Shown here piece by piece: positions 1 through 15,402 of a stretch of 56,145 nucleotides of DNA. This stretch comes from a phage. Location: the sequence record PZ386950.1. The stretch is one strand, 5' to 3'. Numbering within the stretch: position 1 is the first letter of the stretch; each line of letters begins with the position of its first letter. Under the pieces are notes generated by a model, which worked only from the letters and a program-made list of their open reading frames with translations, was not told where the DNA came from and ran no database searches. A program made the translations under genes and the position numbers.

Positions 1-1764
1 ATGAATAAGTTTACTGGAAATATTCATAATTACCCGCGCTGGCGTGATGCCTACGCAAATGACGAACGTATCTGGCGAAAAGGTCAGCCACGCCCGGATT
101 ACAAACAGTGTTACATTGACCGTATTAACCTGTTAAATCGTATGCGCACGGATCGGGCAATTGTCCCGGTACTGAAAAAGTATTACGAAACAAACCCGGT
201 AGCGTTCATTCTTGACTGGGCGTTTACTTATGACCCGCGTAACGTCGGTACTGAATACCCGCCAAATATGCCTTTCTGCCTGTTCGAACGTCAAATCGAC
301 ATGGTTCAGTTTGTTTACGAAGCGCTTGAAGACAAAGAAAAAGGGCTTTGGGAAAAATCGCGAGATTATGGTGCAACCTGGGTAGCTTGTGGTTTGTCCG
401 TGTGGGCGTGGCTGTATCGTCCTGGTTCTTCAGTTGGCTGGGGATCACGTAAAGAGCAGCTTGTCGATAAACTGGGTGACCCGGATAGTATTTTTGAAAA
501 GATTCGCCAGATTATCCGTGCATTACCACCGGAATTACGCCCTGTTGGTCTGCGTGAAAAAGACCATCTGGTTTACATGAAATGTATCAACCCTGAAAAC
601 GGTGCGACAATTACTGGTGAAGCTGGCGATAACATCGGTCGTGGTGGTCGTAAATCTGTCTATTTTTTGGATGAAGCGGCACACGTAGATCGTCCTGAAC
701 TGATTGAAGCGTCGTTGTCAGCTAACACCAACGTTCGTATCGACATCAGTTCAGTTAATGGCGTTGGTAATGTTTTTTATCGTAATCGTAAAGCTGGTCT
801 GGAATGGGAACCGGGCAAGAAATTACCCCGTGGTAAATTGCGTGTAATGGTTCTTGACTGGCGTGATCACCCGGCTAAAGACGATGAATGGTATAAGCGA
901 GAAAAACAATCGTTCGCTGAAAAAGGTTTACAGCATATTTTCGCACAGGAAGTTGACCGCGATTATGCCGCTGCTGTTCAGGGTGTACTGATTAAAGCTG
1001 AATGGGTTCGCGCTGCTTTTGACGCTTTCCGTGACACAGAATGGCGCAAAGCTAATGGACTACTTACACCAACAGGTCAACGTATCGCCGGACAGGATGC
1101 CGCAGACGGTGGTGAAGACGCAAGCGCACTGGTAATTGCTCACGGTGTATTCCTGACACATCTACAACTTGACCACAGAGGCGCTGAACTGGCTGCACCA
1201 GGGATGTTGACGATGGCTAATATGCTGGGTGTTGATGAATATTGGTACGAAGTTAACGGTGTTGGTACAGGCGTTAAAGTAGCGGCAAATGACCGGAAAG
1301 ATACTTTACGCTTCCGTGTGCGCCCGTGGTTACCGAATGGAAAAGTTGTGGATCCGGGTGGTGATATTATCGGTGGTACGAAACCTGGCGATAAAGACCG
1401 TAAATCAAACAAAGATTATTTCTCAAATTATAAAGCACAGGCATCGTGGGCGTTACGCCTGCGTTGTCAGCGAATTTATAAATGGTATGTGGAAGGTCAA
1501 CCACAGGATCCGGACGAAATCATTCTGATTGATCCATCACTGGAAAATGCACAACGGTTAGAAGCTGAGTTAAGTCAGCCAACGTATACCAGTAACGGTG
1601 CCGGGAAGATTGTGATCGACAAGAAACCAAACGGAAGTAAGTCGCCAAACTTTTTCGATGCTGCGGTTATTGCACTATCACCAAAACGCACTGAATTTGT
1701 CGAAGAACCATTTACTGGTGGTGTGAATCCTGTTGGTACGCCTGATTACGGTGACATTTTTTAA
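1..1764 (+). CDS. terL: terminase large subunit
   Basis: 587-aa ORF; Walker-A-like KSRDYGATWV near N-terminus and acidic nuclease-like C-terminal half typical of phage large terminases; followed by two hairpin terminators. Confidence 0.85.
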   Translation: MNKFTGNIHNYPRWRDAYANDERIWRKGQPRPDYKQCYIDRINLLNRMRTDRAIVPVLKKYYETNPVAFILDWAFTYDPRNVGTEYPPNMPFCLFERQIDMVQFVYEALEDKEKGLWEKSRDYGATWVACGLSVWAWLYRPGSSVGWGSRKEQLVDKLGDPDSIFEKIRQIIRALPPELRPVGLREKDHLVYMKCINPENGATITGEAGDNIGRGGRKSVYFLDEAAHVDRPELIEASLSANTNVRIDISSVNGVGNVFYRNRKAGLEWEPGKKLPRGKLRVMVLDWRDHPAKDDEWYKREKQSFAEKGLQHIFAQEVDRDYAAAVQGVLIKAEWVRAAFDAFRDTEWRKANGLLTPTGQRIAGQDAADGGEDASALVIAHGVFLTHLQLDHRGAELAAPGMLTMANMLGVDEYWYEVNGVGTGVKVAANDRKDTLRFRVRPWLPNGKVVDPGGDIIGGTKPGDKDRKSNKDYFSNYKAQASWALRLRCQRIYKWYVEGQPQDPDEIILIDPSLENAQRLEAELSQPTYTSNGAGKIVIDKKPNGSKSPNFFDAAVIALSPKRTEFVEEPFTGGVNPVGTPDYGDIF

Positions 1765-3874: not shown

Positions 3875-5230
3875 ATGGCTGATCAACAATTCGAACAACT
3901 AGCCGTTGCCGGGTACAGTCGAACAGGCAACCAGGTAAACGACGATTTCCTTCCTAAGCTGAACGGTAAACAAGGCCGTCGTATTCTTCGTCAGATGGCT
4001 GAGAACGACGAAACGATCGGTGGTGTACTGTTTGCCATGAGCAGTGTTTATCGTTCTGTACAGTGGATTTTTGACCCGTCTGACAAAGATGATCCAGAAG
4101 CTATCCGTTATTCAGAATGGTTACAGGACGCTATTGAAAATAAAATGGGTGATCCGCGTGGTGCACTCCCGGATGATACCTGGTCCGCGTTCGTTCAGAC
4201 ATGGACAGACGTTGATGTATTCGGCTGGGGTTGGTATGACATTTGGGTGAAAGACCTTGATGATGGCACGGTGGGTATTGCCCGTCTGGTTCCTGTAGCA
4301 CCTGAAACGCTTGCTGGATGGGATATTGAAGAACCGACAGGTTATGTTCGTGGTATTTATCAACGTTCACCTAACCAGGGTACAACGACGTTAATCACGC
4401 GTGACCGTTCGCTTCATTTGATTTCAAGTCCGAATAAAGGTAACCCGGAAGGTTTATCACTGCTGCGCACAGCTTATCGCCCGTGGTACTACAAAAAAGT
4501 GAATATGGAAATCGAATCCATACTTGCCGAACGTGGTACAGGGTTCCCGGTAATTACTGTTAACGCAGATATTAAAAAAGCGGCTAATGATCCTAATGTT
4601 CCTGAACAACAGCGTCAGGCAGCACAGGCGATGATTGATAACTATGAAAACATCGTCGCTAATATCAAACGCAATGAACAATCAGGACTGGTGATTTATT
4701 CTAAACCGTATATCACGGGTTATGATAACGAAACAGGTGTTACCACGTATGGTGGTGAACAACAGGTGAAACTGGAATTCGTTACACCTAACCAGACCAG
4801 TTCTGTGGATATTGACCGGACGATTAAACGTCTGGATACCAGTATTGCCCGTGCGTTACTGGCAGACTTTTTATTTTTTGGCAGTTCGGGTAATACAAGT
4901 AATGGTGCTAACCTGGGTAATCGTACTGAACTGTGGATCCGCGCAATGCAATCACGTATTGATAGTATTGTAGAATGTGTTAATCGTCAGTTGATACCGC
5001 AGTTATGGTCGTTAAACGCATTTCCTGATGAATACCGCCCGTCGATTCGCGCCGGGTCAATCAGTAAAGACAGTATCGAAACGTTGACTACGGCACTTGC
5101 TCGTTTAGCACAAGCTGGTGCGCCTGTATTCCCGGATCCAGACCTTCAGGAATACGTATATAAAGAGGCGGGTCTACCTATTACGGGGATTGATAAAGCC
5201 GGAGACGGATTACCGTCTATTGACGACTGA
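3875..5230 (+). CDS. portal protein
   Basis: 451-aa ORF directly downstream of terminase region; size, acidic C-terminus and position typical of portal proteins. Confidence 0.8.
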   Translation: MADQQFEQLAVAGYSRTGNQVNDDFLPKLNGKQGRRILRQMAENDETIGGVLFAMSSVYRSVQWIFDPSDKDDPEAIRYSEWLQDAIENKMGDPRGALPDDTWSAFVQTWTDVDVFGWGWYDIWVKDLDDGTVGIARLVPVAPETLAGWDIEEPTGYVRGIYQRSPNQGTTTLITRDRSLHLISSPNKGNPEGLSLLRTAYRPWYYKKVNMEIESILAERGTGFPVITVNADIKKAANDPNVPEQQRQAAQAMIDNYENIVANIKRNEQSGLVIYSKPYITGYDNETGVTTYGGEQQVKLEFVTPNQTSSVDIDRTIKRLDTSIARALLADFLFFGSSGNTSNGANLGNRTELWIRAMQSRIDSIVECVNRQLIPQLWSLNAFPDEYRPSIRAGSISKDSIETLTTALARLAQAGAPVFPDPDLQEYVYKEAGLPITGIDKAGDGLPSIDD

Positions 5231-8761: not shown

Positions 8762-9721
8762 ATGGCTACTAAAGACCCATACCCGGATATTTCAGACAAG
8801 TATGACGCTCGTATTCGCGAAGCACTTGATGTCGTGTGGGAAAACGTGCGTCGTAGTGAGTCGTTAGCTAACCTGGAATACATCATTGAAACTCAGGGTA
8901 TTGCCGGATTACTCCCCATTCTTGAAACACTCCCTGATGAACTTAGTGCACAGTTGCGCCCGGTTATTGAAGATGCGATCGCCGAATCAGGTCGTGTAGT
9001 CGTTCAGGTTTTACCGAAAGCGGCTGTGACAGGTCCGGTTGTGTTCAGTCTGGTCACCCCACAGGTCAGTACATACATCAACAACTATGTCGGGCAACTG
9101 ATCCGTGAAGTCAGTGATGAAACAGTCAAAGCTGTTCAGATTGCAGTTAACCAGGGTGTGGTAACCGGACGAAATCCGCGTCAGATAGCCCGTGATTTTC
9201 GATCATCAATAGGGTTAACAACACGGCAGGAAATGACGGTTCAACGTCTGCGATCAGCACTGGAAAAAGGTGAAGCAGGTTATGTGAACAGTCTGACCAC
9301 TGTTACAGACAGTGCAAAGAACGCTGTAAGTGCCGGGAAACTATCACAGGCGAAGATTGACCAGATAATCGAACAGACACGCTTGCGTTATGTAAAACAG
9401 CGCACAGAGACGATTGCGCGTACTGAATCACTTCGTGCTGTATCAGTTGGTCAGGATAAGGCTATTCGTCAAGGGCAGGTTACCGGGGCTATTAGTAATG
9501 AATTGCTGAAGCGCTGGTTATACAGAAAGGATGGTAGGACACGTGACGCGCATATTTCCACGGGCGAAACGAACGGCTGGATACCAATGGACAGACCGTT
9601 TTCAACACCGTTAGGACCACTTATGTTTCCTCGTGATCCTAACGGTAGTGCTGCGAACACGATCAACTGCAGGTGCCGGGTTCAGTATAGTTTACCTGAA
9701 GATATTGGTTCACTGGGTTAG
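8762..9721 (+). CDS. head morphogenesis protein (Mu gpF / SPP1 gp7-like)
   Basis: 319-aa ORF with C-terminal NTINCRCRV motif typical of F-like head morphogenesis proteins. Confidence 0.7.
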   Translation: MATKDPYPDISDKYDARIREALDVVWENVRRSESLANLEYIIETQGIAGLLPILETLPDELSAQLRPVIEDAIAESGRVVVQVLPKAAVTGPVVFSLVTPQVSTYINNYVGQLIREVSDETVKAVQIAVNQGVVTGRNPRQIARDFRSSIGLTTRQEMTVQRLRSALEKGEAGYVNSLTTVTDSAKNAVSAGKLSQAKIDQIIEQTRLRYVKQRTETIARTESLRAVSVGQDKAIRQGQVTGAISNELLKRWLYRKDGRTRDAHISTGETNGWIPMDRPFSTPLGPLMFPRDPNGSAANTINCRCRVQYSLPEDIGSLG

Positions 9722-10227
9722 ATGTGACACGGCATTACAATCATATATGCATCGTTTGGAAAATGAATATGAACCGGTCGATTAGAACTTTGCATACTAA
9801 TTTTTGCTTTACACACCCCGAAATATTTAGCCGCTTTAGCAGCGTCGTTTAAATATTGCAAATTCAGTCCGATTTCCGAAATTTTACATTCATCATAGCG
9901 AGCAACTCTACGCCAGTCTGGGTAACGCCCGTCAACAATGTCCAATGGTGTTTGTTGAACAGTCTCACCATTAACATCACAAAATGTTGCTGTATTATGT
10001 GTCACATCGATTAATACATGGTCAAATTTAGCTGGTGCTTTACCTTTAACAGATACAATAACAGTTTCATCATCTGTCATTGCTTTACCAACGAACATCC
10101 TGTAACCATCGGTTGACACAATAAAACCATCACTGTCAATACAGACCCCGTTGAAACAACAACGAACGTCGTTTTTTGCAGCGCAAAGAATTGCACACAT
10201 AAATTCAGGTCTACTAACTCTAATCAT
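9718..10227 (-). CDS. single-domain DNA polymerase III beta-clamp-like protein
   Basis: 169 aa from ATG 10227; VRCCFNGVCID...STDGYRMFV and IVDGRYPDWRRV closely match DnaN motifs (RYYLNG...ATDGHRLAV; LVDGRFPDYRRV). Confidence 0.6.
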   Translation of the reverse strand: MIRVSRPEFMCAILCAAKNDVRCCFNGVCIDSDGFIVSTDGYRMFVGKAMTDDETVIVSVKGKAPAKFDHVLIDVTHNTATFCDVNGETVQQTPLDIVDGRYPDWRRVARYDECKISEIGLNLQYLNDAAKAAKYFGVCKAKISMQSSNRPVHIHFPNDAYMIVMPCHI

Positions 10228-10499
10228 TCCTGTTTCTCCCCGCAGAACGGACAATAAGACATTTTGATGTTGGTTTCCAGGCGTGTGAAGTTCTTCGCCA
10301 GTTCACCGTTTTTCTTTTTGGCACGGTATGCAAGACGATATTTCAACATAACGTGAATTTTACCAGACGTCAGACCGAAACACTGATTATCCCAGCCAAC
10401 TTTATCAAACAGGTTAGTGCTGACTTCCGAACCTACTGGTACTTTTACCATCAGACGTTTTTGAAGTTCGTCACCAACTTTTTTCATGCAATCACACAT
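10224..10499 (-). CDS. zinc-ribbon protein
   Basis: 91 aa, N-terminal CDC and C-terminal CPFCG. Confidence 0.5.
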   Translation of the reverse strand: MCDCMKKVGDELQKRLMVKVPVGSEVSTNLFDKVGWDNQCFGLTSGKIHVMLKYRLAYRAKKKNGELAKNFTRLETNIKMSYCPFCGEKQE

Positions 10500-10660
10500 T
10501 ATGTATACCTCGATAGACGTTTTAATTTAACTATTAATCTTGTGACTTTACTCCAGTCAGATTCAGTAAAGTCGTCCACGTCTTTAGCCCATAACTCATT
10601 AACATGTCGTGGGTTATATGGTTCTTTCTTGACAGGCTGTTTCCGTTTCTTTTTACCCAT
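10499..10660 (-). CDS. small basic protein (about 53 aa)
   Basis: ATG at 10660 with GGGGAA RBS; TAATG overlap with downstream gene; not in track. Confidence 0.35.
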   Translation of the reverse strand: MGKKKRKQPVKKEPYNPRHVNELWAKDVDDFTESDWSKVTRLIVKLKRLSRYT

Positions 10661-10663
10661 AGG

Positions 10664-11044
10664 TTATTCCCCAGGGTGACGGATATTCAGATCCGGGAGA
10701 ATTTGCATCGGGTTAAACGTAACACGATAACGATACTGATCTGTTGGTGAAGGGTCTGTTTGTTCAATGAAATAAGTTACCTCCGTGGTTAACCCCATAA
10801 AGTGTTTCTTAACGTCGTTCGGACCAGTTTTACAGGTGATTTCGATCTCTTTGCTAGTGTTCTCACGGGCACAACGACCTTCGATAGACAAAAGATACTC
10901 ACCGTTACGAACATTATAGAAAACGATACGACGATTTACTTCAAAGTTAGCTGCAGCGGTTGCAACGTTACGACTGGCAACATCAGCAGCGTTATCACAG
11001 GCTGTCAGGGTTGTTAACATTGCGCATAGAATCAGTTTCTTCAT
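10664..11044 (-). CDS. lipoprotein
   Basis: MKKLILCAMLTTLTAC: signal peptide with lipobox LTAC. Confidence 0.65.
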   Translation of the reverse strand: MKKLILCAMLTTLTACDNAADVASRNVATAAANFEVNRRIVFYNVRNGEYLLSIEGRCARENTSKEIEITCKTGPNDVKKHFMGLTTEVTYFIEQTDPSPTDQYRYRVTFNPMQILPDLNIRHPGE

Positions 11045-11059
11045 TTTAGTGTCTCGGAG

Positions 11060-11461
11060 TTATTTAATGATTAATGTTGGTTGTAAGTCTTCTTCATACC
11101 AAGTCCAACCAATGCATGTACCATCTTCAGCATCAACATATGGTTTCAACCAGTCGATAAATTGTTCAATCTCACCACCATAATTTTTAATATCGCTACG
11201 ACTAAAAATATATTGAGTATCGGTGAAATCAAATTTAGGACAACTATTTATTACTTCCGGGTGATGATAAAAACTGCTACAACTACCAATAAAATTCCAT
11301 CTGGGGAGACTGAAAAACTTATGTTGTGGTAGTTTCTCTGGTTCTTTTTCACCACAGAACATGTGTGCAATAATAGCTTTCACATCCACAGGTACATCTG
11401 CTTTAATCTGACACTTCAACACTAATTCGGTATACATTCCCATTTTCACATCCTCATTCAC
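11060..11461 (-). CDS. hypothetical protein
   Basis: 133-aa ORF; alternative start at 11443 has better RBS (GAGGA). Confidence 0.5.
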   Translation of the reverse strand: MNEDVKMGMYTELVLKCQIKADVPVDVKAIIAHMFCGEKEPEKLPQHKFFSLPRWNFIGSCSSFYHHPEVINSCPKFDFTDTQYIFSRSDIKNYGGEIEQFIDWLKPYVDAEDGTCIGWTWYEEDLQPTLIIK

Positions 11462-11856: not shown

Positions 11857-11886
11857 GTGGTTAAGAAAACAAGAAGGGTTGAATGT

Positions 11887-12255
11887 ATGGATCCGAACAT
11901 CAGAGTTGCCACAGACGAATTCATTCGTCGCGCCTGTAAAATTCATGGTGATCGTTACGACTACTCATTCAGCATTGTTGAAGATAGTTCCAGCACAGTG
12001 GTTATTATTGACCGTGAAACTAATACAGTGTTTTTCCAGGTTGTCGCTGAACATCTGGACGGTGTTGAACCAGTAACGACTGCTGTTGAACCGGTAACGA
12101 CTGCTGTTGAACCGGTAACGACTGTTGTTGAACCGGTCAAGAATCTTTCTGAGACATTCGGTAACGTTGCAAACAGCGTGTATCACCAGTGCAATTATTC
12201 ATCTGAAATGTTAGAATTTAGTCATGTTGAAACAATACGAGGACAGTCCCCGTGA
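11887..12255 (+). CDS. hypothetical protein with VEPVTTA tandem repeats
   Basis: track ORF starts at GTG inside the promoter -10; trimmed to in-frame ATG 11887 with RBS AAGAAGGG. Confidence 0.55.
   Translation: MDPNIRVATDEFIRRACKIHGDRYDYSFSIVEDSSSTVVIIDRETNTVFFQVVAEHLDGVEPVTTAVEPVTTAVEPVTTVVEPVKNLSETFGNVANSVYHQCNYSSEMLEFSHVETIRGQSP
12064..12137 (+). repeat. 21-bp coding tandem repeat (about 3.5 copies)
   Basis: gttgaaccRgtaacgactgct repeated, encoding VEPVTTA. Confidence 0.85.
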
Positions 12256-12662
12256 TAAATGTAAAAGTCAGCAAAACAGACCCCGGTTTACGAATGGTAT
12301 TCGGCTGGGGAACGATTTGTAAGAAAAGAAATTCTGAAAACGGTTTGTTAGAGGAGTACATCGACACTGACAACGAAATATTTCCCGAAGATGTTGTTCT
12401 AAAAGCATGGTTGGAATTCATGTCTGGCGACCAGCGTATTATGGACAATATGCACAATGAACAACCTGTAGGGAAAGTTGTGTTTGCGTTCCCGATGACT
12501 GAAGACATTGCGGAAAGTTTTGGGCTGGTTGATAAACTGGATCAGACAGGCATCATTGTTGGTACGTTGATAACTGATGACGAAGTTTTGAAAAAGTTTC
12601 AGACTGGTGAATATACGGGCTACAGCATCGGTGGTTCAGCTTATTATAAGGATGTGGAATAA
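12252..12662 (+). CDS. putative prohead protease (S78/U35-like catalytic region)
   Basis: MHNEQPVGKV and TGEYTGYSIGG resemble His and Ser motifs of HK97-type prohead proteases as I recall them; position before scaffold and capsid. Confidence 0.45.
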   Translation: MINVKVSKTDPGLRMVFGWGTICKKRNSENGLLEEYIDTDNEIFPEDVVLKAWLEFMSGDQRIMDNMHNEQPVGKVVFAFPMTEDIAESFGLVDKLDQTGIIVGTLITDDEVLKKFQTGEYTGYSIGGSAYYKDVE

Positions 12663-13921
12663 TGCGTACAGATGGTACTAATCATTTACGTCGCGCTAAA
12701 TCGATGAAGATCGGTTTTCTGTCCGGCGTGACAAAACCTGCTCACGAGGGAGCAAATGCTCTTGTTCTTAAATCACATTCAGAACCGCCTGCCGTTGCTC
12801 TTTTAAAGTCAACATTCAGTGCAGCACTGGCTGAAAAAGAACTTGAACAGAAAGTTCGCGATTTCCTCTCTAATTCGTGGATGTTGAACGATGCGCTTTA
12901 TGAAGCAGCAGAGGATATTGCAAAAGATGATTCTGTTACCGATAAACAAGCAGCATTGCGTGACGCGGTAAATGAATATATTATAACGTTGCAACAGGCC
13001 GCTGGTATTTCGATGAATAAAGCGAAAGGTGGTAAAACTGAAGACGGTGAAGTTTTCCCGGCATCTGATTATGCATATGTACCAGATCCAGAAAAACCTT
13101 CAACCTGGAAACTTCGTTTAACAGCTACCCCTGGCGGTGAACCTGATGCGCGTATTGTAGGCGCTGCACTTGCTGCATTAGGTCCGGGTTATCGCGGTAA
13201 CAAAGTTGAAATCCCTGAAGCCGATTTAGCAGGTGTGAAAAACAAAGTCCGATCCGCGTGGAAAAAATTACACCCGGACCAGGAAGTACCTCAAGTTTTA
13301 AAAACGGCAGAGGAAATCGAAATGTCCGAACTGGAAAAATACAAAGCCCTGGCTGAGATGAACGACGTCCATAAGGCGTATCATAATTCTCTGCCTGAAT
13401 CTGATCAGGAAGCATTCCGTAAAATGGATGTGACTGCTCGCGATGCCCTCGTGACGATGGCTAAACAGGCTGATGAATCGTTTACCACGATTGCGGGTCA
13501 GGTTGTTCAGAAATCTGTAGCTGGTCCGATGTATGACGTTCTGAAATCTCAGGACGAACAACTTCGCAAAGCACAGACTGAAGCGGCACTGGCGAAAGCT
13601 AAAGAAACCGTGAACACTGATTTCGCACATATTCCGGGTGAAATGGTACAGAAAACCCAGATGGTCATGACTCTTGAGCGTTTACCGGAAGCGGATCGTA
13701 ACTTCCTGGTTGAAAAGCTCAAACAGGCCGACGAACTCTGGAAAGCACGTAAAGAGCCAGCCGCGCCGAACGGCAGTGGTAAAGGTTCCAGTGCACTGGA
13801 AGACATGATCAACGAATGGCTGAAAGCAAATCCGGGTAAAACACGCACCCAGGCTATGCAGGCCATTTCTGCAACTAAAAAAGGTCAGGAAGCAATCGAA
13901 GCGATGCGAGGTGACGAATAA
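12662..13921 (+). CDS. scaffolding-like protein
   Basis: 419-aa acidic, helix-rich protein between protease-like and capsid genes. Confidence 0.55.
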   Translation: MRTDGTNHLRRAKSMKIGFLSGVTKPAHEGANALVLKSHSEPPAVALLKSTFSAALAEKELEQKVRDFLSNSWMLNDALYEAAEDIAKDDSVTDKQAALRDAVNEYIITLQQAAGISMNKAKGGKTEDGEVFPASDYAYVPDPEKPSTWKLRLTATPGGEPDARIVGAALAALGPGYRGNKVEIPEADLAGVKNKVRSAWKKLHPDQEVPQVLKTAEEIEMSELEKYKALAEMNDVHKAYHNSLPESDQEAFRKMDVTARDALVTMAKQADESFTTIAGQVVQKSVAGPMYDVLKSQDEQLRKAQTEAALAKAKETVNTDFAHIPGEMVQKTQMVMTLERLPEADRNFLVEKLKQADELWKARKEPAAPNGSGKGSSALEDMINEWLKANPGKTRTQAMQAISATKKGQEAIEAMRGDE

Positions 13922-14331
13922 TGGCTAAGAACAGCAAAATCTACTGGAACTATGAGCGCCCGACCCGTGCCGTTGCATCCGTGGCTATTTCGGCAGGTAT
14001 TGGTCTTGTTCTGGATACCAGTTTAGGTGACACTAACCAATGTGTACCTAAATACAAACTCCCAACGGCTGGCGGTCGTATTGACGGTGTAGCTGTTGAT
14101 GATGCCACTGCTGGTGTATTCTTCGACCTGGTAAACGAAAAAGAAAAATTCGTACCAGTAAAAGCATCTGCAGCGTTCGGTACAGGTGTCGAACTTGCTG
14201 TTGGTGCTGACGGACGATTCCAGACCGCTACTACTGATCAACTGGTTGTGGCTATTTCTCAAACTGGTGCCACTGCTGAAAACCAGGTAGTTACCGCATT
14301 ACTTATTGCACCGTATTCTAAAGGAGCATAA
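13921..14331 (+). CDS. capsid-associated protein (possible decoration protein)
   Basis: 136-aa ORF immediately upstream of major capsid gene. Confidence 0.45.
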   Translation: MAKNSKIYWNYERPTRAVASVAISAGIGLVLDTSLGDTNQCVPKYKLPTAGGRIDGVAVDDATAGVFFDLVNEKEKFVPVKASAAFGTGVELAVGADGRFQTATTDQLVVAISQTGATAENQVVTALLIAPYSKGA

Positions 14332-14334
14332 CCG

Positions 14335-15354
14335 ATGAGTTACAAACAGAATTTTCGCGACGTTGGCGCACCAGATACATTCCTGTCTAACTTTTCTGTA
14401 AGTTACTGGCAGGATACATCACTGTTTGTCGGTACTCGTTATTTCCCGGTAGTTCCTGTTAATCAGGCTGCTGGTAAGTTTCTGACTTACCCGAAAGGTT
14501 ATTTCGGTCGTCCGGTTAACTCCAAACGTGCCGAAGATGGTGTTGCTAACACTATTGGTTACAAAACCAAAAACCAGGGTTACACCGTTGATGACGATGC
14601 GATCCGTATCTTCATTTCTGACAAAAAACGTGCAAACGTTCAGAACGGTCAGCAACTGGATATGGAAGCGTCTGCAGTAACCACAGATGCGTTACTGATC
14701 AACAAAGAAGTGGATTTTGCTGAAAAATTCCTGACCGCTGGTAAATGGGGTCTTGATTTCCAGGGCAAAGACGCGTCTCCGTCCACGGGCGAATTCCTGA
14801 AATGGTCTAATGCGAATGCCGATCCGATTGGTGATATCCTGTCACGTCGTGTTGCGTTCTCTCTGGCATCCGGTGGTCGTCGCTGGAATAAAGCACTGAT
14901 GACGCTGGACGTGTATGACGCACTGACCCGTAGTCCGGCTGTTATTGACCGCATTAATGGTGGTTCTACCACTCAGAATCCGGGAATCGTGACTAAACAG
15001 GCACTGGCTGCACTGCTGGAAGTTGACGAACTGGAAATCATGCAGTCCGTGGTCAACATGGCTGCTGATGGCGTTGAAGACGGTGATGGCAATCCGATGT
15101 CAGACTTCCAGTTTGCTAAAACTGGTGTGCTGATGCTCAACTATGTTGAACCGACTGTTGGTAACATGAAACCTGTTGCTGCTGCGGGCTTCGTGTGGAA
15201 CGAGTTCATCGATCTGGGTGTTAACAACGGACCGTCTATCCGCACCTATCCGGGTGTTGAAGGTCGCCGTGGTAATTTCGTTGAAGCGGAATTTGCCATT
15301 GATGTTCAGATGGTTGCACCTGACCTGGGCGTTCTATTCTACGACGCGGTTTAA
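14335..15354 (+). CDS. major capsid protein
   Basis: 339-aa ORF with strong codon usage, followed by a terminator; position after scaffold. Confidence 0.7.
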   Translation: MSYKQNFRDVGAPDTFLSNFSVSYWQDTSLFVGTRYFPVVPVNQAAGKFLTYPKGYFGRPVNSKRAEDGVANTIGYKTKNQGYTVDDDAIRIFISDKKRANVQNGQQLDMEASAVTTDALLINKEVDFAEKFLTAGKWGLDFQGKDASPSTGEFLKWSNANADPIGDILSRRVAFSLASGGRRWNKALMTLDVYDALTRSPAVIDRINGGSTTQNPGIVTKQALAALLEVDELEIMQSVVNMAADGVEDGDGNPMSDFQFAKTGVLMLNYVEPTVGNMKPVAAAGFVWNEFIDLGVNNGPSIRTYPGVEGRRGNFVEAEFAIDVQMVAPDLGVLFYDAV

Positions 15355-15373: not shown

Positions 15374-15402
15374 AAGGGGTGGCTTATGCTGCCCCTTTTT
15401 TC
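15374..15402 (+). terminator. rho-independent terminator after capsid gene
   Basis: GC-rich imperfect stem aagggg...cccctt followed by ttttt. Confidence 0.5.

Follow-up and report, generated by a model that had tools for sequence, protein, structure and literature searches.

Can a tailed phage divide the fold of its prohead protease between two genes, so that the catalytic core is made as one protein and the last strands of the fold as the beginning of another? Prohead proteases need to stay inactive in the cytoplasm, to enter the procapsid in few copies, and to be switched on only after assembly, and the known solutions to their delivery are covalent, namely, a targeting tail, a protease-scaffold fusion, or nested genes. 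The question is raised by two adjacent open reading frames (ORFs) in a 56,145-nucleotide (nt) stretch of DNA from a 9NA/Sasha-type siphophage (sequence record PZ386950.1; the whole stretch is called the window here). ORF1 (12252..12662, + strand) has a GTG start and encodes a protein of 136 amino acids (aa) with the features of an S78_2/XkdF-type prohead serine protease core. ORF2 (12662..13921, + strand) has an ATG start and encodes a protein of 419 aa. A first-pass annotation, made from the window sequence without database searches, had recognized protease-like motifs in the first product and a protease-like strand in the second, and it had left fusion of the two frames, trans-complementation, and coincidence as options. 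We favor the interpretation that ORF1 and ORF2 together make up a naturally split, two-chain HK97-type prohead protease-scaffold, and we regard it as probable.

ORF1 encodes a candidate protease core

The first-pass annotation had staked its case on protease similarity in at least one of the two ORFs, and ORF1 matches the Pfam family PF14550 (Peptidase_S78_2, XkdF) with 36 bits against a cutoff of 24 (E = 8e-9; profile positions 25-122/126). The two motifs that had been likened to those of HK97-type proteases, MHNEQPVGKV (residues 67-76) and GYSIGG (residues 123-128), carry the putative catalytic residues, and the likeness is borne out by this match and by an hhalign alignment with the HK97 protease, gp4. 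The putative catalytic His, H68 (codon 12453..12455, + strand), is paired with gp4 His65, and the putative catalytic Ser, S125 in GYSIGG (codon 12624..12626, + strand), is paired with gp4 Ser114 in GMSVGF. The invariant Asp of 'D-T-D-N-E', D38 (codon 12363..12365, + strand), is aligned by hhalign with gp4 'TDSDGD' and may be a third active-site residue. D38, H68, and S125 are invariant in three alignments of 13 (A1), 46 (A2), and 79 (A4) sequences. The ORF1 product extends from the N-terminal strands through the putative catalytic Ser and one more strand and closes with the acidic end YYKDVE; in the DNA, GAGGA at 12239-12243 precedes the GTG start.

Screening 1.84 billion representative proteins with a profile recovered 2574 relatives of ORF1 at E <= 1e-3. 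When a model of the S78_2 core fold was compared with 48,164 chains, the best match was T4 gp21 (PDB 5JBL), aligned over 99/165 gp21 residues at 14% identity. The PDB was also searched by sequence, the queries being HK97 gp4, the ORF1 family profile, and a profile of concatenated gene pairs (see below), and no relevant match was obtained; hits to 'Cake' designed proteins were rejected, as they arose from the tail columns of two long alignment rows. The profile and alignment comparisons support the assignment of ORF1 as an HK97-type (clan S78) protease core.

A different label is in circulation for ORF1 relatives. The best PHROGs match of ORF1 is phrog_1530, 'DNA methyltransferase' (E = 7e-27), and because of this match the name has entered the RefSeq entries for 9NA and Sasha as well as several further phage records. 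The match is confined to the C-terminal part of the profile (235-354/379), and we rejected the label as a fusion-protein artifact, probably inherited from methyltransferase-protease fusions such as those of Rhizobium phages.

The start of ORF2 corresponds to the end of the protease domain

The first 37 residues of the ORF2 product (MRTDGTNHLRRAKSMKIGFLSGVTKPAHEGANALVLK; 12662..12772, + strand) consist of a basic head and an 'hS-V--PA--GA---hK' motif and are colinear with gp4 residues ~125-160, which form the final conserved segment of the S78 protease domain in its canonical form. In HK97 gp4, the sequence runs in one chain as FFNH65K...GMS114VGFSVAKDDYTIIPTGRIFKNIQALREISVCTFPANEQAGIAAMKS, whereas in the window it runs as NMH68N...GYS125IGGSAYYKDVE-stop and then resumes as MRTDGTNHLRRAKSMKIGFLSGVTKPAHEGANALVLKS. 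The gp4 counterpart of the ORF2 start is 'LREISVCTFPANEQAGIAAMKS', and in gp4 terms the break falls in the turn between the post-Ser strand and the next strand. The first-pass annotation had stated that ORF2 begins with a sequence resembling the conserved C-terminal strand of the proteases. The homology holds, but the literal start does not: the stretch in question, KIGFLSGVTKPAHEGANAL, represents residues 16-34 and is preceded by 15 residues, MRTDGTNHLRRAKSM.

For profile comparisons, the products of 46 gene pairs were concatenated and aligned with the window as the first row (A2). hhalign aligned A2 with HK97 gp4 over 150 columns (E = 0.003), pairing H68 with H65, S125 with S114, and ORF2 residues 16-37 with gp4 residues 139-160. 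The catalytic Ser and the motif Ser are also similarly spaced: they lie 24-45 residues apart (median, 32) in the concatenations and 29 apart in gp4. Comparison with homologs in which the two parts are fused, which had been proposed as a check, gave the same result: one single-chain relative, P0154, matches both PF14550 and the canonical family PF04586 (E = 4.3e-6; 27.4 bits, cutoff 21), and the PF04586 match begins ahead of the Ser and extends across the motif (profile positions 71-158/165). Among the concatenations, 24/46 match PF04586 at E <= 0.01. In a paired control, all four concatenations tested match PF04586 (E = 4.9e-6 to 4.4e-4; profile positions ~90-158/165), whereas the same four upstream proteins tested alone against PF04586 gave no match.

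The segment is also conserved within the ORF2 family. S21, V23, A27, A31, and K37 are invariant or nearly so among 64 ORF2 homologs (A5), and the N-terminal motif is found in about 90 of 120 homologs. Nearly all homologs, down to ~30% identity, share a pattern in which a basic stretch is followed by 'h-x-h-x-E-h-S-x-V-x-x-P/G-A-x-x-G-A' within the first 12-30 residues. These comparisons support homology of the ORF2 start to the conserved C-terminal strand(s) of S78 proteases. In an AlphaFold2 (AF2) model of ORF2 alone, residues 1-42 are predicted as coil, with a predicted local distance difference test (pLDDT) score of 51-61.

The split is conserved across the family

To what extent the arrangement is shared was assessed in 84 loci with an S78_2 gene, of which 80 are viral contigs and 3 are metagenomic; the remaining one is the window. 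In 72/84 loci, which represent 57 distinct pairs, the motif is found in a second ORF no more than ~130 nt from where the S78_2 match ends. In these 57 pairs, the S78_2 gene stops 0-17 aa past the domain and the next gene opens with a basic stretch and the motif. The net charge of the upstream tail is -2 (negative in 49/57 pairs), and that of the downstream head is +3 (positive in 48/57).

A similar result was obtained from the top-scoring set of S78_2 proteins, of which 248/270 (92%) end within 20 aa past the domain and only three (P0154, P0236, and P0287) carry the motif in the same chain. No single reading frame covering at least 80% of the concatenated query was found in 117 cultured-phage records, which include phages of Roseobacter, Rhizobium, Pseudomonas, Proteus, Vibrio, Klebsiella, Salmonella, and Escherichia hosts. 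The same TAATG split was seen when Enterobacter phage Mulvp2 was spot-checked. By profile and locus comparison, both pieces are homologous to one protease domain and their separation is deeply conserved; judged from these sequences, the split is ancient and is the rule rather than an accident. A sequencing or assembly error at the junction was considered and rejected, as 9NA, Sasha, PDP46, and the Klebsiella and Enterobacter phages, which were sequenced independently, have the same split.

ORF2 is a candidate scaffolding protein

Following the protease-like segment, the AF2 model of ORF2 (mean pLDDT, 79.9) has helices at residues 43-113 and 216-416, the latter with a pLDDT of ~85-93. The first region consists of two long helices (H43-88 and H95-113; 12788..13000, + strand), and the second lies in a mostly helical, scaffold-like region (residues 216-419; 13307..13921, + strand) that has a conserved C-terminal helical end in A5. 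The first-pass annotation had described this part of the protein as a long helical scaffold-like region; the largely helical character and the scaffold position are as described, but a compact, highly conserved, non-helical module between the helices (residues 122-205) had been missed. This alpha/beta module (residues 122-215; 13025..13306, + strand) carries the pattern KTEDG..FPASDYAYVPDPEKPSTWKLRLT..PGG.PD.RIVGAA.AALG.G.RGNKV.IP, has a pLDDT of 87-92, and is atypical for a scaffold.

No Pfam family was matched by the module. Otherwise unrelated phage head-region proteins contain versions of it that are 60-76% identical and span 21-28% of ORF2. In three S78_2 relatives (P0115, P0125, and P0135) it stands N-terminal to the S78_2 domain, and in P0045 it is duplicated; the module is mobile among phage head proteins.

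The ORF2 gene is located after the portal gene and ORF1 and before the major capsid gene, an order shared with three other loci of the survey (L004, L006, and L007), and it is the only scaffold candidate between the protease and capsid genes. It is furthermore colinear with the single-chain protease-scaffolds of T1-like phages.

A proposed two-chain enzyme

We propose that ORF1 supplies the protease core, comprising Asp38, His68, Ser125, the post-Ser strand, and the acidic tail, and that ORF2 is the scaffold, whose first ~37 residues (the basic head and 'IGFLSGVTKPAHEGANALVLK') would provide the strand(s) at the end of the protease fold that ORF1 lacks. The two proteins would be translated separately from one late message, ORF1 from its GTG and ORF2 from its ATG with its own AAGGA. 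The ORF2 N terminus would then dock on the ORF1 core by strand complementation, pairing with the ORF1 tail and completing the sheet, and the docking would tether a substoichiometric protease to the scaffold, leading to their coassembly inside the procapsid. Docking would probably also complete the active enzyme, which would digest the scaffold (and itself) before DNA packaging. The physical docking, the dependence of activity on it, and the scaffold role of ORF2 are what we infer; of the three options left by the first-pass annotation, trans-complementation is the best supported, as an interpretation. That a conserved boundary between genes lies within the protease fold suggests a solution other than the covalent ones, in which strands donated by the scaffold would couple targeting, stoichiometry, and possibly activation in one interaction.

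In an AF2 model of the single-chain relative P0287, the core is predicted with a pLDDT of 84-96, but the Ser-bearing segment stays below 50 although it is covered by the alignment. The low score of the Ser segment and the predicted lack of structure in the ORF2 N terminus would fit a core that by itself is incomplete.

Several observations weigh against a two-chain enzyme. ORF1, ORF2 residues 1-63, and the window's own concatenation gave no match to PF04586 at E <= 10, and the hhalign probability against the single gp4 sequence was low (10% at E = 0.003). Because the window's own concatenation falls short of PF04586, the case for the window rests on family membership and on the hhalign alignment. 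Members of the 9NA group, which is divergent, have Phe, Tyr, or His in place of the Glu that is otherwise common in 'E-I-S'. That S78_2 domains end right after the Ser strand in ~90% of cases could also mean that the domain is shorter and self-sufficient. In the P0287 model, residues 124-186 have a pLDDT of <50 and the hairpin is unplaced; the underlying alignment was deep for the S78_2 part only, and MAFFT misplaces the scaffold N termini once more than ~4 S78_2 sequences are included. As for ORF2, no described scaffold family was matched in Pfam, its PHROGs matches (19463 and 24785) are labeled as of unknown function, and Foldseek searches with its model gave no PDB match at E <= 0.001 and, in BFVD, only relatives without names. 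Its role as a scaffolding protein is deduced from gene position and helical architecture only.

Some of these points can be read in favor of two independent proteins. According to this explanation, the S78_2 domain of ORF1 is a self-sufficient minimal protease, and the motif of ORF2 is a relic of gene fission that has taken on another role, as a cleavage or recognition site or in binding to the portal or the capsid. In Pfam, the S78_2 model stops ~8 residues past the Ser motif, the 92% of the family that stop there include many proteins with long N-terminal extensions, the motif is undocked in the P0287 model, and its Glu is not conserved in the 9NA group. On the other hand, the motif aligns inside the PF04586 profile (positions ~140-158/165) as an integral, conserved part of S78, it belongs to the most conserved parts of ORF2 in homologs down to ~30% identity, and it is always found at the extreme N terminus, directly after the S78_2 stop codon. 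Independence also leaves the complementary charges of tail and head and the poorly defined Ser segment in the core-only context without a place, and if the motif were nothing more than a cleavage site, there would be no need for it to stay homologous to a strand of the enzyme itself. We consider independence of the two proteins, the main alternative, unlikely, although it deserves to be taken seriously.

The gene junction

A second alternative is that ORF1 and ORF2 are joined by recoding. In this case, a -1 frameshift (or another event) at TAATG would yield a minority ORF1-ORF2 fusion, which would be the real protease-scaffold, and ORF2 alone would be the bulk scaffold, analogous to nested or frameshifted genes known from phages. 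Such an event would be in line with the geometry of the junction (12648..12664, + strand), at which the ORF1 stop codon TAA (12660-12662) and the ORF2 start codon ATG (12662-12664) share one base in GAA TAA TG, so that ORF2 lies in the -1 frame relative to ORF1 with a 1-nt overlap. The rare single-chain relatives (P0154, P0236, and P0287) and the fact that single-chain protease-scaffolds are the known norm, for example in T1, would also agree with it.

The signals at the junction point elsewhere. Because the ORF2 frame has a TAA at 12647-12649, only 12 nt (GGATGTGGAATA) are able to host a shift, and this stretch, open in both frames, contains no X_XXY_YYZ slippery heptamer; the first-pass annotation had noted no obvious slippery site. 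The sole hairpin-like element near the junction (12617-12637) is located upstream rather than downstream of it, and close relatives show synonymous variation across the junction (GAT/GAC and GTG/GTT/GTA). A Shine-Dalgarno-like AAGGA (12648-12652) sits 9 nt 5' of the ORF2 ATG. Of the 57 distinct pairs, 31 have the downstream gene in the -1 frame, 19 have it in the +1 frame, and 7 have it in the same frame after a stop codon, and the intergenic gaps range from -29 to +34 nt. Some loci have separate Shine-Dalgarno sequences; in L004, a 12-nt spacer holds AGGAGG. No conserved recoding signal was found across the gene pairs compared, and because the frames are mixed, the gaps are variable, and separate Shine-Dalgarno sequences occur, no single recoding mechanism fits. 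A frameshift fusion, one of the options listed by the first-pass annotation, is thus very improbable.

The junction signals fit separate, translationally coupled genes, and ORF1 is perhaps made in smaller amounts than ORF2. An internal start at ORF2 Met15 was also considered and rejected, as relatives that keep residues 1-14 have Leu, Ile, or Thr at this position.

Finally, a chance resemblance, with neither ORF related to prohead proteases, might be argued from the lack of a direct PF04586 match of the window sequences and of a sequence match to a solved structure, but it is refuted by the profile results and by the recurrence of the split in 57 distinct pairs, and coincidence can be set aside with near certainty.

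Comparison with known systems

The proposed two-chain enzyme resembles HK97 gp4 in the order and spacing of its elements (N-terminal strand, D-x-D-G-D, His, G-x-S-x-G, ~30 residues, and 'E-I-S-V--PA---A----K') and in that a head-maturation protease is encoded beside the capsid gene. However, gp4 is a single chain of 225 aa that is targeted to the capsid by its own C-terminal tail, and HK97 is without a separate scaffold, whereas in the window the domain is broken after the post-Ser strand and its last segment heads a 419-aa scaffold-like protein. Of the features of PF04586 members, ORF1 lacks two, a score above the threshold for the window sequence and the presence of the whole domain in one polypeptide. 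It is a member of the PF14550/XkdF family, for which NCBI uses the name 'XkdF-like putative serine protease domain-containing protein' and which is annotated only as a 'putative protease' domain. In the literature searched on XkdF, PF14550, and Peptidase_S78_2, we found annotation mentions only, with neither an account of the split nor biochemical data. As far as we have checked, the gene pair is already annotated in databases and the split is undescribed.

Protease-scaffold fusions of an analogous kind are lambda C/Nu3 and P2 gpO. In T1 (ST50; YP_003895.1, 370 aa; L090:3621-4733), the sequence ELS121VGY is followed 50 residues later, in one chain, by NHIALVFKGRAGIAK, a stretch that resembles the motif opening ORF2. 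In T1-like phages, an N-terminal protease domain is physically joined to a helical scaffold, by which the enzyme is incorporated into the procapsid (bioRxiv 10.1101/2023.05.21.541620), and mutations that allow escape from the cyclic oligonucleotide-based antiphage signaling system (CBASS) map to this single-chain head maturation protease. In T1, lambda C/Nu3, and P2 gpO the coupling is covalent, through one ORF or nested in-frame ORFs, whereas in the window the cut lies inside the protease fold. Because a stop codon and a restart separate the two parts, the coupling in the window would have to be noncovalent, which would allow independent control of the amounts of the two proteins.

Partner strands that complete or activate a protease are found in other viruses, as in flavivirus NS2B-NS3, hepatitis C virus NS3-NS4A, and the adenovirus protease with pVIc; in adenovirus, the strand donor is a capsid precursor inside the particle. 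The likeness to these systems lies in the beta-strand donated by a partner and is an analogy of mechanism only, since the folds and lineages are unrelated. To our knowledge, no such cofactor arrangement has been described for the prohead proteases of tailed phages. T4 gp21 (PDB 5JBL), whose fold is of the gp21/herpesvirus assemblin type, differs from the proposed enzyme in being a single chain, and it is activated by N-terminal self-cleavage (PMC9958956).

N-terminal extensions and implications for the family

Tentatively, the proposal can be extended to the whole XkdF/S78_2 family, present in thousands of phages. Its members might be obligate two-chain prohead proteases in which strands of the scaffold activate and load the core, and the core might also serve as a capsid-targeting handle for N-terminal cargo, including Acb1; we put this forward with less confidence than the proposal for the window. 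If the family is indeed two-chain, proteolysis would be licensed only where scaffold has assembled.

Domains that might be such cargo are present in some relatives. Among 107 S78_2 relatives with at least 80 extra N-terminal residues, 26 carry a strong match to the Pfam domain Acb1 (an anti-CBASS nuclease; best E = 3.8e-43) and 20 carry a ChaB domain; examples of extended relatives are L007:1449-2504, P0178, P0197, P0209, P0217, P0259, and P0275. The window ORF1 is without an N-terminal extension. Prohead protease activity was reported in a 2026 preprint to trigger CBASS (10.64898/2026.03.04.709575), in which the words 'fusion' and 'fused' are absent. A protease that is incomplete until it has met its scaffold and relatives fused to Acb1 would both bear on the CBASS arms race.

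The proposal would also correct annotations, as ORF1 relatives are labeled 'DNA methyltransferase' and ORF2 relatives 'hypothetical', and it provides a rule for finding scaffold genes, namely, to look for the gene that follows the S78_2 stop codon and opens with the motif. It is directly testable with the two small proteins of easily grown Salmonella and Escherichia coli phages (9NA, Sasha, and PDP46).

Nearest relatives and gene neighborhood

Over the 2.6 kb spanning the gene pair, the window shares 95% identity with Escherichia phage PDP46 and Sashavirus isolates, 84.5% with Salmonella phage 9NA across an aligned 81%, and ~78% with a group of Klebsiella phages. The same gene pair with the same 1-nt overlap is annotated in 9NA and PDP46. 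The 9NA counterparts of ORF1 and ORF2 are gp37 and gp38, both of which are labeled 'hypothetical' in the original 9NA record, while the ORF1 homolog is labeled 'putative serine protease XkdF' in the PDP46 record, and a relative in Carvaje is likewise annotated as XkdF type.

Upstream of the pair, the window encodes a large terminase (1..1764), a portal (3875..5230), and a MuF-like head protein (8762..9721). Between the MuF-like gene and the protease gene, the head-gene cluster is interrupted by a block of small reverse-strand ORFs (178, 91, 53, 126, and 133 aa; 9718..11461, - strand); the 9NA genome note mentions unusually numerous small novel genes among the assembly genes. Just upstream of ORF1 lies an ORF (11857..12255) homologous to a PDP46 gene labeled 'DUF723 family'. 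It contains a 21-bp tandem repeat (12063..12137; 3.6 copies, 96% match) that encodes VEPVTTA repeats; the region is lacking from the Salmonella and Klebsiella relatives, whose matches begin at query position ~490.

Downstream, ORF2 is followed by ORF3 (13921..14331, + strand; 136 aa) and the major capsid protein gene (14335..15354, + strand). A strong terminator-like hairpin (15374..15397; 10 pairs, 6 of them G-C, followed by a T-run) is located directly 3' of the major capsid gene and suggests that the four genes from ORF1 to the capsid gene are transcribed as a single unit. ORF3 matches PHROGs family 673, 'head scaffolding protein' (E = 1.3e-23), a label carried by some records, whereas Casjens' 9NA record names its homolog gp39 'major virion structural protein'. 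In the L004 locus, the equivalent gene has a weak Phage_cement_2 match. The scaffold label is thus doubtful for ORF3, which is more likely a decoration or cement protein.

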